From an uncultured Pseudobdellovibrionaceae bacterium (GTDB lineage: Bacteria; Bdellovibrionota; FAC87; UBA2466), in NCBI GenBank assembly GCA_964492125.1, contig CAZBJE010000003.1, positions 27,788 to 91,787 on the forward strand: a stretch of DNA of 64,000 nt. The letters are read 5' to 3'. Shown here in pieces: positions 55,112 through 59,335 of this stretch (position 1 is the stretch's first letter; each line of letters starts with the position of its first letter). The position numbers were made by a program, and so were the translations under genes. A model generated the notes under the pieces. It saw only the letters and a list, made by a program, of their open reading frames with translations. It had not been told where the DNA came from and made no database searches.

Positions 55112-58100
55112 TCACTCAGGCAGGAACCACGAATAGGGCATCACGTTGCAATCGGCCCGCCCGCAGATGGCGCATGCGGTATGCTTCAGCAACCGCTGGA
55201 TTTTTTCGTCTTGCTTCGCCAGCTCCTTCAGTCTTTCAACGACGGTCTTCGCTTCCTCAATGGCGTTCACTAAATCGGTTTTGGTTTGCCCTTTCGATTC
55301 GCCGATCTCCTCGGCCAACTTCGCCAGTAAGGCGGCAGGAAGTTTACCTTCCCGAATCGCCTTCTTCAGTGCAGCCTCCGACATCTGTTCTTTCTGACTC
55401 ACCCGCTCCAGGGCTTTGAGTACCTTCCCGGTTTGGGGGCTTACCTCGATGGCCGCGTGATCGTGGTCGTGAAGCGCGTGGGCGCGCTCCGCGGTAGCCG
55501 CCTGCTCCACCCGGACCTTTGTCACAGTCAGCAGGGGGGGCAGGGGCGCTGCAGGACTCATTGCCTGTCTTGGCCCGTTATCCTGAAGTGGCGGTGTCTG
55601 GGCTGGGCGCTGGGAGAACGGCGTTAATGCACCCCGCACGCCCTGCTCGTCGATCTCCGCTTCCTTGCTCGTAAAGTTTTTGCTCAGCACCCGCCGAGCT
55701 AGATCCCGCACGTTTTGGGAATTTCCCCAGCCGGGTGTGGCTAAGCGTTGTGCAATGGTCTCGCGCAGGGCTGCGGTGCCTGAAGCGGAAAGCTGTTTGC
55801 CATGGCCGTTCAAAGTCTCCACCACGATTGCCATGCTCTCATCCAGAGTTAGATCATTGAATGGAATCTGGCGGTCGACAAAATGGCCCAATCCAGGTAT
55901 TGCCAGCATGCTTTCTGCCTGTTCCGGGGTGCCGGCGAACACCACTGCGAGCCGCCCTCTGTTCTCTCTCAAAAAGGCGGCTACTGTCTCAATGACTTCC
56001 CGATTGAAGGCGCTGCGCGAATCGCTCAAAGGACCCAGATCGGTGAAGTAAATCGTTTTTCCTAAAGCGCTCTCCAACGCACGTTGGGTTTTTGCCGCAC
56101 TATGGTTGGTGAACTCGCCCAGCAGATCCGCCGGGGTAACCGTCACTAGCTGATCGCTGGGCAGCATCTGCTGGGAATGAAGCAGCCGTGCCAAGGTTTC
56201 GGCGGCAACATTCATTTCTGTTTTGGCGGTACCCGAAAAGAGATAGTGCGGCTCAAAAAATTCGCTTGGATCGCTTGCTGTCTGCGCCAGTTCGAGATCG
56301 ATTGAGATCGCATGAAACTCGCTTTTCACCGACTGCAAACCGTGCAGCCGATCGAGTTGCTCAAGGAGTACCGCGGCCGGTGGCAGTGGCGCCACGAGAT
56401 CTTCGGCGGTGAACTCAGACGCCTGGGCGAGATTGACCAGCTGCCCCAGACCCTGAAGGCGCCGCGATTGCCGAAGGAGTGCCGAGCCCAGAATGATATC
56501 TACTTCACCCGCGTTGCCAAAATTGTTCTCTTTTCGTTTAAGACCCAATCGGCGAACGGCGGCGCGAATCGCGGCTGGCTGAATGGAAAAGCCCATTCCT
56601 TTCGCCTTACGCTCCAAAATGGCGGCCAGTTCATCATTCTGGTAGTCGGAGAAGCGAAACTTTCTTGGGAAGCGCCTCGCCATCCCGGGGTTGGCCGCCA
56701 TCAGCGCTACCATCTCCTTGGTGTAGCCGGCCAAAATGACGACCATGTCCTGGTTGAAATCGGGGTTAATCCCCGCGTTTAGGGTATCGATCACAGCTTG
56801 GCCGTACGGATTTCCCGAACTCCCGGTCTCCACTCGGAATAGCTGGTAGGCCTCGTCGATGAAGAGTACCTTTCCCTTCGCCCGCCTGAGAAAATCCCGG
56901 GTCTTTTCTTCGCTGTCGCCGACCGTCGTCCCAATTAACTCGGAAGCTTTTACACGGATCACTTCGCCGTCGGAGAGGTAGCCCAAGTCTTTTAAAATGG
57001 CCCCGTAGATCTCTGCGATCGTAGTTTTGCCCGTTCCGGGTCCTCCTTCGAAAGTGGCGTTGAGAAGCGGGCGTGGTAAATTCTGGCCGAGCGCCGCCCG
57101 CTGCTTCTCCATTTCTAATAGCGATACAATTTCCAATATCGATTCTTTCACCTCGCCATGCCCCAGAATAGGTTCGAGGCGAGCTAGAGCGGCGCTTGCG
57201 GCAATAGGCGGGCCTTGAAAATCTTCGAGTGTTAAACGCTTGTGCGTTTCGTTTGCGATGGGGCGTGGCATCTTCGAAAGTCGGGTCGCTTGCCTTGTCA
57301 CGGCTGCTTCGAAGGCATTTCGCACGGAGCCGGCGTTGCCAAACCCCGGGCCCCTTTGTCGGGAAAGCAGTTGGATGGCTGCATGGGCCGCTTCGGGGGT
57401 GATCTCATAATCAAAATCTTTTGCGCGTTTATTGAGAATAAGGGTCAGAGTGGCGTTGTCGTAGTCTTCGAAATGGATGCGTTGCGGGAATCGCCGTGCA
57501 AAACCGGGGTTCGTCGCGGCGAAATCATTCATCTCTTTCGTGTAGCCCGTACCGATGACGACAAAATCTCCACGGTTGTCTTCCATTGCCTTTAGTAGCA
57601 CCTGGGCGGCCTCGGCACTAAACCGGTTCTTCAATGGGTTCATTGCGTAGAGTTCATCGATCAGCAGCACGCCCCCTTGCGCGTCTCTGATGGCATCTCG
57701 CATCTTTTTGGCGGCATCCGGCCCCTCAAAATCACCGCCCCCCACTTCGATGACCGGAATCTCCTCCTCCTGAGAATCTTCGCCCAAAGACGCGCTTCCC
57801 GGTTTTGGTTCCTTCTGAGGCGGTAGAGCCCTTTCTACGCTAGCTGCTGTCTTGGCCCGATTGATCGTTTCGACAATGGCCGCCAAACGGCTTCGGACAT
57901 TGCCGTACTGCCCAGGGCTCAGGCTCTGCATGGCCCATGCGATCTGTCCTTGCTGAGTGCGTTGGGACTTGGGGGTGCTGGTGTTATACGCCATCATGGC
58001 GCCGAAGACGGCCTCGTAGGGACCGTAGTCTTGGTAGTTTGCCAGTTCATTTACGAGTAGCGTCTGAAAGAAGCCCCCAAAACTTCCGGCTTGGCTCGTT

Positions 58101-59335
58101 CCAAGATCCGCCACGGCAACCGGTTGATCGCCCACTTCCAAATTTCGTCGAACGTCCTCAATCACGCCCCACAGTTCGGAAGGATCCAGTGAGGTACCCT
58201 GCCGCCGCACAAGCGCAGTCACCCAGGCCAGCGTTGGGCCGGGATCGTACAATGCCCGTGCGTTGGCGTTAGCTTTCTCGTAGGCGGCCATGGCCGCAAC
58301 CACATTTTCGTACTCCGAAAGAAGGTGTTGGGGGACCTCGCCCTCGGACTTCATTTGATTCCAAGCAGCGGCATACTTCGCATCGATCTCCGTCTCGGGC
58401 GACGCCCCCGCTGCTTCTGACCGGGGTTTTGCTCCCGCGGCTGGGATGGTCCGCTTTTTCAAAAATCCCAGCTCCACGAGCCTTCGGGCATACAGTCGGG
58501 CGACCGTCGTCTTGCCCGTGCCAGGGTTGCCCTCGAAACGGGCGTGCAAGGTGGGATAAACCAACTTGAGTCCCGCAGCTTCGCGATCCGCGTGAATGCT
58601 TAAAAGGTGTTCAATTTCGTCCAGCTGATCGGCCACTTTCGCCAAGCCCGGCATGCTACGAAGTTCATCGCGTGCCGTTGGGGTAGGCTCCGCCGACCGT
58701 GTTTTGGGTGGGGCAGTTGGCTCTATTGGGACGTACCGAAAATACTCTAACACTTGATTAGACAGTGGCCCGGGCGGAAGCAGATTCGCGCCGAATTCTC
58801 CGGTGGGAAATGTCAGTTCCCCCGCACCTACGGATCTTCCCAGCACTTCACTCATCCACCGCCGGTGTTTTTCTACACGGTCTTGCGTTTCGCGCGTGTC
58901 TTGAGCCATGTCGACCGTGAGAACTCTGTACCGATCGGTTCCCTTCCCCTGGGTAAGGATGCTGTAGTAAGTGCCGTCGGCCGATGCACGCAGCGAAAGG
59001 GCCCGGTATCCGCCGGCGTATTCGCTGCGTCTTGAGAAGCCCTTTTGCCACTGCTGTACGAAGAACTCGTTCAGTAGCTCATTGAGCGGGCGCTCAATGG
59101 GCTCCGCAGAGAAACCGTCAAAGAGGGATGGGCTCGAATTAAAGCCCAGCCCCTGAAACCAGAGGGTGTTTGCCCCTTCGGGGGAAGCAGCCATTTGGTT
59201 CATCAGCCAAACGCAATCGTTTCGAACTACTTTTTTCGCGCTAGCCGAAAGTTTGGGTGGGTTTGCGACGCAAAGCACCGGCAATAGAAAGCCTGCCAGC
59301 GCTATCAGCCACCATTTTGCTGTAAAGCCCGTCAT
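55112..59335 (-). CDS. Large multi-domain protein with two canonical CbbX/SpoVK/EccA-type AAA+ modules plus a third degenerate one, a Sec-signal-like N-terminus, a C-terminal coiled coil and a terminal Cys motif.
   Basis: FEGNPGTGKTTVARLYARRL and FEGGPGTGKTTIAEIYGAIL Walker A boxes. LLIDELYAM and LFIDEAYQLF Walker B boxes. Start placed at MTGFTAKWWLIALAGFLLPVLCVA (59335); the listed 59377 start lies inside the conserved element. Confidence 0.7.
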   Translation of the reverse strand: MTGFTAKWWLIALAGFLLPVLCVANPPKLSASAKKVVRNDCVWLMNQMAASPEGANTLWFQGLGFNSSPSLFDGFSAEPIERPLNELLNEFFVQQWQKGFSRRSEYAGGYRALSLRASADGTYYSILTQGKGTDRYRVLTVDMAQDTRETQDRVEKHRRWMSEVLGRSVGAGELTFPTGEFGANLLPPGPLSNQVLEYFRYVPIEPTAPPKTRSAEPTPTARDELRSMPGLAKVADQLDEIEHLLSIHADREAAGLKLVYPTLHARFEGNPGTGKTTVARLYARRLVELGFLKKRTIPAAGAKPRSEAAGASPETEIDAKYAAAWNQMKSEGEVPQHLLSEYENVVAAMAAYEKANANARALYDPGPTLAWVTALVRRQGTSLDPSELWGVIEDVRRNLEVGDQPVAVADLGTSQAGSFGGFFQTLLVNELANYQDYGPYEAVFGAMMAYNTSTPKSQRTQQGQIAWAMQSLSPGQYGNVRSRLAAIVETINRAKTAASVERALPPQKEPKPGSASLGEDSQEEEIPVIEVGGGDFEGPDAAKKMRDAIRDAQGGVLLIDELYAMNPLKNRFSAEAAQVLLKAMEDNRGDFVVIGTGYTKEMNDFAATNPGFARRFPQRIHFEDYDNATLTLILNKRAKDFDYEITPEAAHAAIQLLSRQRGPGFGNAGSVRNAFEAAVTRQATRLSKMPRPIANETHKRLTLEDFQGPPIAASAALARLEPILGHGEVKESILEIVSLLEMEKQRAALGQNLPRPLLNATFEGGPGTGKTTIAEIYGAILKDLGYLSDGEVIRVKASELIGTTVGDSEEKTRDFLRRAKGKVLFIDEAYQLFRVETGSSGNPYGQAVIDTLNAGINPDFNQDMVVILAGYTKEMVALMAANPGMARRFPRKFRFSDYQNDELAAILERKAKGMGFSIQPAAIRAAVRRLGLKRKENNFGNAGEVDIILGSALLRQSRRLQGLGQLVNLAQASEFTAEDLVAPLPPAAVLLEQLDRLHGLQSVKSEFHAISIDLELAQTASDPSEFFEPHYLFSGTAKTEMNVAAETLARLLHSQQMLPSDQLVTVTPADLLGEFTNHSAAKTQRALESALGKTIYFTDLGPLSDSRSAFNREVIETVAAFLRENRGRLAVVFAGTPEQAESMLAIPGLGHFVDRQIPFNDLTLDESMAIVVETLNGHGKQLSASGTAALRETIAQRLATPGWGNSQNVRDLARRVLSKNFTSKEAEIDEQGVRGALTPFSQRPAQTPPLQDNGPRQAMSPAAPLPPLLTVTKVRVEQAATAERAHALHDHDHAAIEVSPQTGKVLKALERVSQKEQMSEAALKKAIREGKLPAALLAKLAEEIGESKGQTKTDLVNAIEEAKTVVERLKELAKQDEKIQRLLKHTACAICGRADCNVMPYSWFLPE

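Follow-up and report, generated by a model that had tools for sequence, protein, structure and literature searches.

Can a bacterium build an ATP-driven machine for use outside its own cytoplasm? This question is raised by a gene in a 64,000-nucleotide stretch of contig CAZBJE010000003.1, from an uncultured Pseudobdellovibrionaceae bacterium (the whole stretch is called the window here), whose product combines three tandem AAA+ ATPase modules with an N-terminus that resembles a Sec-type signal peptide. Bacterial AAA+ ATPases are taken to be cytoplasmic, and the periplasm has no ATP supply. From the sequences of this protein, its homologs and their loci we tentatively favor, somewhat short of an even chance, a Sec-exported triple-AAA+ ATPase that acts outside the cytoplasm of its producer, most plausibly in a host or prey cell, where there is ATP.

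The gene is real. It is an uninterrupted open reading frame (ORF) on the minus strand, running from a first ATG at position 59377 (1,421 residues) to a stop codon at 55112-55114; a second ATG at 59335 (MTGFTAKWW...) gives 1,407 residues, the upstream ATG adding 14. The deposited NCBI protein, P0001, is 100% identical and also begins at 59335. Residues are therefore numbered throughout in the 1,407-residue form, whose coding sequence with its stop occupies 55112-59335 (minus strand, like all parts of the protein given below). The initial annotation was right about the ORF but had combined a length of 1,421 residues from one start with coordinates that fit the 1,407-residue form. Alignment with the homologs P0002 (1,247 residues) and P0140 (1,474 residues), which are 41 to 42% identical to the window protein, together with two AlphaFold models, gave the overall layout: a signal-like N-terminus, an orphan N-domain, a first AAA module (AAA1) carrying an insertion, AAA2, AAA3, a disordered linker and a helical C-terminal module.

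The signal-like segment comprises residues 1 to 24 (59264-59335) and was delimited by hydropathy, by its n-, h- and c-region anatomy and by the -3/-1 rule. An n-region, MTGFTAK, is followed by the h-region WWLIALAGFLL and the c-region PVLCVA, with candidate cleavage before NPPK, and the segment is the hydropathy maximum of the entire protein. Signals were called by hand rules, which scored the charge of the n-region, the hydrophobic core and agreement with the -3/-1 rule; for Sec export and cleavage by signal peptidase I (SPase I) we looked for a short positive n-region, an h-region of 7 to 15 residues, small residues at -3 and -1 and no proline at +1, and by this scoring the window protein has these features. 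A lipoprotein signal (SPase II) was rejected, since there is no lipobox and ...PVLC has leucine at -1, which is disallowed, and a Tat signal was rejected since MTGFTAK contains no RR.

The same kind of N-terminus recurs in the homologs. P0002 begins MTK-WALTLGCLFSLS-AQNAHS, with the predicted cut before N, and P0140 begins MRYWVAQAR-LSISLLLFLLALF-SRGAHA, with the cut before T. P0012, a more distant member, is annotated from an internal methionine; its ORF in locus L008 begins at an ATG seven codons upstream, and from there it reads MRAST-TFLNLLAIVCVAHVL-PQNSQG, with the cut before A. Signal-like N-termini are present in 4/4 full-length members, ahead of unrelated N-domains and with no sequence identity beyond the pattern. 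In the scoring they fall with secreted controls of the window (a periplasmic binding protein, an adhesin, a FecR-like protein and a trypsin-like protease) and are separated from cytoplasmic controls (LeuRS, PEPCK and a glycosyltransferase). P0002 and P0140 have short hydrophobic cores, of 13 to 14 residues, between positive n-regions and neutral or acidic downstream flanks; cores of this length fall short of a membrane span and fit a cleaved signal. The N-termini of all three homologs look cleavable, and none of the three begins downstream of its hydrophobic segment, so that the signal-peptide-like N-terminus proposed in the initial annotation is upheld.

As found here, the signal-bearing family comprises four full-length members (the window protein, P0002, P0140 and P0012) and one fragment, L089, which was found in a metagenome scan as a C-terminal piece ending HYVCLACGRSTCNYMPYTWFTEE and adjoins ORFs that look by eye like MerT/MerP mercury-transport genes. 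When 185,579 species genomes, a set outside which the source genome lies, were scanned with family-specific patterns, no member came to light, nor did one in a scan of viral contigs; plasmids gave only generic CbbX/SpoVK-type matches, many of them. P0002 and P0140 are probably paralogs in one organism, since they occur in the same samples and have the same GC content (48.7%). Tandem CbbX-type modules with a secretory N-terminus had been put forward as an undescribed architecture. The tandem alone is common, since proteins in which two to four modules of this clade are joined turned up by the hundred in a homology search; it is the signal-bearing form that is rare.

Cysteine content provides a second line of evidence. 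Avoidance of cysteine with even counts is a known signature of proteins exported to oxidizing compartments. In each of the four full-length members the chain after the signal contains four cysteines and no more, three of them within a C-terminal motif and the fourth elsewhere: C41 in the window protein, C25 in P0002 and C31 in P0140, near the predicted mature N-terminus, and C1206 in P0012. Outside the motif there is 1 cysteine per 1,200 to 1,566 residues, with a binomial P of 6e-6 to 1e-4 when the 0.94% cysteine of seven cytoplasmic proteins of the window is taken as reference, and the four members are among the most cysteine-poor of 127 large relatives (median, 1.35%). By comparison, 13 cysteines occur in P0003 and 15 in P0123, two relatives that lack the signal. 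This pattern suggests export.

At three independent loci the gene lies amid signal-bearing orphan ORFs, some of which contain "cytoplasmic" domains (kinase or J-domain), and P0140 itself has a WD40 domain. In the window, nearly every ORF from 48 to 64 kb starts with a signal-like segment. Beside P0140, in locus L005, positions 3649-4776 (plus strand) encode a 375-residue J-domain protein with a strongly positive n-region; its J-domain (SGRDYYEVLGL) begins directly after the signal-like N-terminus MLRKKNRYDGIALIGLLTITFSNHALG, and three large signal-bearing orphans lie nearby. No Hsp70 partner is expected outside the cytoplasm. P0012 in L008 is likewise flanked by signal-bearing orphans, including a weak kinase-like ORF (4522-5688). 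Kinase, J-domain, WD40 and AAA+ proteins need cytosolic partners or ATP, and their repeated occurrence behind export signals suggests action in the cytosol of another cell.

Several observations weigh against an exported ATPase. A phrase search of the literature for secreted, periplasmic or exported AAA+ proteins found no exported bacterial AAA+; the idea is thus novel, but it has no precedent. Low cysteine content is also found in some signal-less bacterial multi-AAA relatives (0.37 to 0.46%). The neighbors are not conserved between loci: tblastn and blastp searches with 17 window proteins found only the AAA gene to be shared, and the neighborhood is a recurring theme rather than a conserved operon. 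No secretion-system gene was found among the scanned ORFs of the window, and its housekeeping genes (LeuRS, PEPCK, PurK and Sua5) do not indicate an obligate host-bound lifestyle. In addition, no member of the family has a longer hydrophobic run than the window protein, with 17 hydrophobic and 20 uncharged residues, and the 15 residues that come next are basic, at +4 (+4/-1, against +1 before the run); P0012 resembles it in having a basic downstream flank (+6). By the positive-inside rule, a long run with a basic flank favors an N-out/C-in anchor and would hinder Sec export.

We therefore considered that the segment may remain uncleaved and anchor a cytoplasmic triple-AAA+ chaperone in the inner membrane, much as FtsH is tethered, with the chaperone serving envelope-bound or exported clients from within the cytoplasm. 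The charge distribution would then place the bulk of the protein in the cytoplasm and the ATP paradox would be removed; moreover, the characterized members of the clade to which the modules belong are all cytoplasmic chaperones, some with envelope or secretion clients (PMC11513918). However, the short cores of P0140 and P0002, with their positive n-regions and their flanks, are those of cleaved N-in signals, P0140 having a textbook AHA before the cut. Extreme cysteine depletion, with the same count of four in every full-length member, is not expected of cytoplasmic proteins, and the neighboring kinase-like and J-domain proteins have the same kind of N-terminus. A membrane anchor seems rather unlikely, but it is the chief alternative.

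The three modules differ in their nucleotide-binding motifs. AAA1 with its lid spans residues 222 to 715 (57191-58672; Pfam, NCBIfam and alignment) and has a Walker A box, GNPGTGKT (residues 269 to 276, 58508-58531), and a Walker B box, LLIDELY (residues 557 to 563, 57647-57667), both located by motif search; alignment placed its GY sensor-1 at 57533-57553, the ARRF arginines at 57488-57505 and the sensor-2 motif GNAGSVRN at 57317-57340. AAA2 with its lid (residues 716 to 985, 56381-57190; Pfam, NCBIfam and PDB search) has the Walker A box GGPGTGKT (residues 764 to 771, 57023-57046) and the Walker B box LFIDEAY (residues 824 to 830, 56846-56866), again by motif search, with GY at 56714-56734 and ARRF at 56669-56686 by alignment. 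AAA3 (residues 986 to 1235, 55631-56380) has a CbbX-like fold in the AlphaFold model, with a predicted local distance difference test (pLDDT) score mostly of 74 to 94 and CbbX 3syk as its best PDB structural match (E 5e-13); for the C-terminal part as modeled, AAA+ folds were the only matches, and AAA3 accounted for them. Its Walker A box is the degenerate FSGTAKTEM (residues 1033 to 1041, 56213-56239; motif search), and its Walker B box is lost (IYFTDLG, 56033-56053; alignment). All the Walker motifs quoted in the initial annotation, which had proposed two canonical A/B pairs and a third, degenerate module, are present.

The assignment of these modules to a CbbX/SpoVK/EccA type also held in Pfam, NCBIfam and the PDB. 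Pfam gave two AAA (5e-29) and two AAA_lid_6 (2e-21) matches, and the closest solved proteins by sequence are CbbX 3zuh/3syk (1e-42) and EccA1 9lur (2e-27). NCBIfam gave SpoVK TIGR02881 (4e-120), CbbX TIGR02880 (2e-115) and EccA TIGR03922 (4e-93), with four matched stretches each, over which the SpoVK score of 399.7 bits is summed; all three lie under the equivalog cut-off (399.7 against 422.95 for SpoVK, 384.9 against 459.25 for CbbX and 313 against 466.65 for EccA). With profile affinity to SpoVK, CbbX, EccA and AAA_lid_6, the protein falls within the SpoVK-EccA-like clade. The sensor-1 tyrosine of the clade (GY) is present in AAA1 (GTGY, residues 595 to 598) and AAA2 (LAGY, residues 868 to 871) and lost in AAA3 (FAGT); the clade asparagine is present (NPGFARRF and NPGMARRF), with arginines at N+5/N+6 rather than N+4/N+6. 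AAA1 has a sensor-2 arginine, and AAA2 (GNAGEVDI) has none. In AAA1 and AAA2, both Walker boxes, the GY sensor-1 and the two arginines show strict conservation among homologs at about 42% overall identity, which argues that the protein is under selection as an ATPase. An anti-phage defense ATPase was rejected, as PADLOC gave P-loop-level matches only (IetA, 5e-5 and 20.7 bits; no stretch passes).

The threading loops have changed. Canonical clade members (such as P0006, P0044 and P0104) have the pore loop G-x-Y-[IV]-G, and CbbX activity requires an aromatic pore loop. In AAA1, pore-loop-1 is deleted in the window protein, P0002, P0140 and P0012; in AAA2, the canonical tyrosine is missing in all four and in the three-module relative P0123 (GTTVGDS in the window protein). 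A pore-loop-like sequence, GEF or GQY, persists in AAA3 of the window protein (GEF) and P0002, and the loss of the Walker motifs from AAA3 is common to the window protein, P0002 and P0140; AAA3 of P0012 and P0123 has fully intact ATPase motifs and a loop of canonical form. The modules of the window protein that look ATP competent thus have no threading loop, and the module with a loop-like sequence has no nucleotide-binding motifs. We infer from the loss of pore loops in intact modules that a nucleotide-driven clamp, switch or remodeler is more likely than a classical unfoldase.

These changes could also be read as a family trend away from motor function, AAA3 being an apparent pseudo-ATPase. 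The protein would then be exported, as the same signal and cysteine evidence suggests, but remain a periplasmic, surface or vesicle protein that serves as a nucleotide-independent scaffold or binder or uses scavenged external nucleotides, with which the lack of a secretion system nearby would agree. The strict conservation of the nucleotide-binding and sensor motifs instead argues for selection on nucleotide binding together with hydrolysis, and we consider this reading improbable. A start-site artefact, in which translation begins downstream and yields an ordinary cytoplasmic multi-AAA+ chaperone, is very improbable indeed: there are two candidate starts, with a Shine-Dalgarno-like AGGA only 2 nt before the ATG at 59335 and none before that at 59377, but both lie upstream of the hydrophobic segment, the next methionine is residue 45, and four divergent homologs keep the signal-like pattern at the start of their ORFs.

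For the exported ATPase that we favor, a presumed course can be sketched, from translocation and cleavage through exit across the outer membrane to the place and mechanism of its action. The anatomy of the N-terminus and of those of the homologs suggests that the signal would thread the unfolded chain through SecYEG and that SPase I would cut after ...CVA; exit from the periplasm might then occur by, for example, type II secretion or vesicles. The variable N-domain would pick the target, because N-domains of the clade recruit substrates and are thought to recruit a narrow client set (PMC11513918). AAA1 and AAA2, with their intact motifs, would bind and hydrolyze ATP and act as a clamp or remodeler, AAA3 would serve as a structural pseudo-ATPase module, and the C-terminal helical module with its three invariant cysteines may mediate self-association or docking through zinc or disulfides.

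The N-domain of the window protein (residues 25 to 215, 58691-59263) holds the sole cysteine outside the C-terminal motif, C41. It has no Pfam match at E<=10 and a pLDDT mostly below 50, and it cannot be aligned to the N-domains of P0002 or P0140. The three differ in kind: an orphan domain in the window protein, a WD40 propeller in P0140 and, by eye, an apparently repeated helical segment in P0002. AAA1 is interrupted by an insertion specific to the window protein, which separates strand beta-2 from the helix that follows Walker A; at about 230 residues (approximately 294 to 526, 57758-58456) it is smaller than the 300 or so residues at first proposed between Walker A and Walker B. It is absent from P0002, P0140, P0003 and P0012, and relatives have only 6 to 10 extra residues at this site. 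The insertion has no Pfam match and is predicted to be all-helical, but its pLDDT is below 50, in a model of the N-terminal half with a pLDDT of 55. Searches with a chimeric N-domain/insertion query and with an AAA3 profile found no homologs, but both missed even the identical P0001, so that these negatives carry little weight.

The protein ends in a proline-, alanine- and glutamine-rich disordered linker (residues 1236 to 1300, 55436-55630; pLDDT 25 to 32, poorly conserved) and a conserved C-terminal module (residues 1301 to 1407, 55115-55435; profile search and alignment). The module consists of helices, including REGKLPAALLAKLAEE, followed by H1385-x2-C1388-x2-C1391-G-R-x2-C1396-x3-P1400-x2-W-F, with the cysteine motif HTACAICGRADC at residues 1385 to 1396 (55148-55183). 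In the AlphaFold model there is no single long coiled coil, as had been proposed, but a disordered linker of about 60 residues, about 85 residues of helices (the longest of 26 residues) and the cysteine tail. The knob itself proved to be conserved across homologs; a role in lipidation, also suggested earlier, does not fit, as the position is not lipidation competent, with no lipobox and no CaaX at the end.

The module is conserved in P0002, P0140, P0003, P0012, L089 and other proteins. A profile built from the last 95 or so residues of four proteins and searched against 1.84 billion representative proteins gave 22 matches. Along with bacterial members they included P0123, which has three AAA modules and ends FICGVCGRKGCPVMP, and a large number of fragments and shorter proteins that carry (F/Y)ICGVCGRxGCPVMP; P0134, from a green alga (Cymbomonas tetramitiformis), is among these. 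Invariant in the module is the core C-x2-C-G-R-x2-C-x3-P, which comes after the helices. The recurrence of the module in other proteins fits export. Searches of Pfam and the PDB gave no relative of the module, the best matches being a designed helical bundle (E 0.11) and rubrerythrin (0.47). Three cysteines at a helical end suggest an association knob mediated by zinc or disulfides. A C-terminal sorting signal was rejected: there is no C-terminal transmembrane segment, and the module is also present in proteins without signals and in a eukaryote. Four relatives with three AAA modules (P0071, P0080, P0092 and P0114) have a different cysteine knob, MGxCPxG(F/Y)xWxxxxxG(Y/W)RCxGGxH, which an acidic/basic helical stretch precedes. 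A common plan, in which three AAA modules are followed by a disordered linker, helices and a short cysteine-rich tail, thus recurs with two unrelated tails.

Among proteins of solved structure, CbbX, the red-type Rubisco activase (3syl, 3syk and 3zuh), is the best match to the window protein by sequence and to AAA3 by structure, and the two have in common the AAA_lid_6 lid, the NPG...R motif and the GY sensor-1. CbbX differs in being a single cytoplasmic module of about 300 residues that has a Rubisco context and, as its pore loop, the aromatic GQYIG, in contrast to the three modules, the deleted (AAA1) or nonaromatic (AAA2) pore loops, the signal-like N-terminus and the extra C-terminal module found here. 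CbbX proper was rejected as an identity on its score and pore loops and because no Rubisco genes occur among the scanned window ORFs. The window protein is a member, with EccA and SpoVK, of a higher-order group of classical AAA+ proteins, the SpoVK-EccA-like clade (PMC11513918). However, EccA, the AAA+ ATPase of type VII secretion, combines tetratricopeptide repeats (TPRs) or a beta-helix with one AAA module, is encoded in ESX loci and is cytoplasmic; here the score is below the cut-off, the N-domain lacks a Pfam match or TPRs, and no ESX genes lie nearby. SpoVK, the sporulation chaperone of MurG, has a short N-terminal domain (beta-beta-beta-alpha), is confined to sporulating Bacillota and is cytoplasmic. 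It too was rejected, given its score, the absence of sporulation genes and a producer that is apparently a diderm and, by its LeuRS, not a member of the Bacillota.

Multimodule CbbX-type proteins without a signal share the tandem modules and, in P0003 and P0123, the C-terminal cysteine module; they differ in having a normal cysteine content and in usually keeping the aromatic pore loop in at least one module. Tandem relatives include Streptomyces proteins with a beta-helix and AAA modules and fungal proteins of about 2,300 residues that join a superfamily 1 helicase to three modules. Five proteins (P0018, P0019, P0028, P0040 and P0046) have four modules and a C-terminal trypsin domain, P0060 has AAA modules with a C-terminal trypsin domain, and P0003 and P0012 have three modules and a retropepsin-like domain, P0012 possessing both this domain and the signal. 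[quoted passage not shown]

Around the gene, a 276-residue orphan ORF with a signal-like N-terminus (54272-55102, minus strand) lies 9 nt downstream and is probably cotranscribed with it. On the plus strand, 50748-51725 encodes a protein-kinase-like ORF with the signal-like N-terminus LSSKLHILPLLAVFAVSSYGA and the motifs HNDLHSGN and VDFG (Pfam Pkinase, 4e-6, below the cut-off; APH, 5e-5); this would make it the second enzyme of the cluster to combine ATP use with an apparent export signal, and it is followed by two orphan ORFs with signal-bearing N-termini (51762-52982 and 53058-54251, both plus strand). The initial annotation had suggested the products of 54272-55102 and 50748-54251 as partners, and they were dropped as conserved operon partners, having no counterparts at the homologs' loci. 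Between a trypsin-like ORF (48231-49049) and the kinase-like ORF lies an ATP-grasp ligase related to the dapdiamide synthase DdaF (49097-50689, minus strand; NF005543, 9e-94), which has about 110 extra N-terminal residues and whose true start is probably further downstream. A trypsin-like gene also occurs near the AAA gene in locus L001 (2390-3871), which may be coincidence. In L008, seven paralogous signal-bearing orphans flank P0012 (625-4472, minus strand, and 13882-19216, plus strand), with one to three copies each of an AAxELMRxRxxxPxSRxLGTxERxxYKxQL-type motif.

The window is ordinary chromosome (RNase D, PurK, Sua5, Maf, LeuRS and PEPCK), and P0002 and P0140 adjoin integrases, a resolvase, an insertion sequence element and a toxin-antitoxin pair; the latter setting counts in favor of the exported ATPase. 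A genomic island was considered from composition, GC being 0.50 to 0.53 over 50-55 kb against 0.55 to 0.58 in most flanks, but the GC of the AAA gene is typical and the test is uninformative. Proteins of periplasmic type are encoded as well, namely, a periplasmic binding protein and one with a soluble lytic transglycosylase domain. In the species genomes the LeuRS of the window has only distant relatives, the best matches being at 68% in a metagenome-assembled genome labeled Acidobacteriota, 66% and 62% in ones labeled Myxococcaceae and Myxococcales, and 63% in Poribacteria; the producer is deep-branching and apparently a diderm. Elsewhere, 18543-23332 holds genes for a FecR-domain protein (18543-19433) and a CHASE2-adenylate/guanylate cyclase (19474-21783), joined by a convergent gene for a 520-residue trypsin-like protease (21770-23332), and 35002-40638 (minus strand) encodes a 1,878-residue signal-bearing surface protein with He_PIG, Big_9 and cadherin-like repeats, probably an adhesin.

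AAA+ proteins with a signal sequence that work outside the cytosol exist in eukaryotes, namely, Plasmodium HSP101 of the PTEX translocon and the torsins of the endoplasmic reticulum lumen; they belong to different AAA+ clades (ClpB/Hsp100 and torsin) and to the eukaryotic secretory pathway, and their homology to the window protein is limited to the AAA+ fold. According to PMC1079819 and PMC12483598, Plasmodium exports kinases and J-domain proteins, to which the signal-bearing kinase-like and J-domain neighbors described here would be a parallel. Precedents for proteins with ordinary Sec signals that reach the host cytosol are described in PMC3107777 (chlamydial cHtrA) and PMC12845134 (Sec-dependent effectors of Liberibacter); none of those described there is an ATPase, and the route across the outer membrane is unclear even there. 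A bolder extension of the favored reading, possible but doubtful, is that this is the first bacterial AAA+ built for export: a small, cysteine-purged triple-AAA+ family delivered to a eukaryotic host or prey together with signal-bearing kinases and J-domain proteins, as a counterpart of the Plasmodium exportome, with a C-terminal module whose sharing with a green alga would point to gene exchange between bacteria and eukaryotes.

The clade of the ATPase modules was known already, and their tandem arrays are common. What is new is the conserved export-type N-terminus with its cysteine pattern, the undescribed C-terminal module and the loss of pore loops in intact modules. The module, helices followed by CxxCGRxxCxxxP, is found in bacteria and at least one green alga and has no Pfam or PDB relative. 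The loss of threading loops from modules that bear ATPase motifs is informative on how the "specialized chaperones" of the clade work, and the trypsin and retropepsin fusions contradict the published lack of peptidase associations in it (PMC11513918). A conserved export signal on an AAA+ protein, if true, would mean either that secreted effectors include a new, ATP-driven class or that such machines can be tethered to the membrane in a way not described before.

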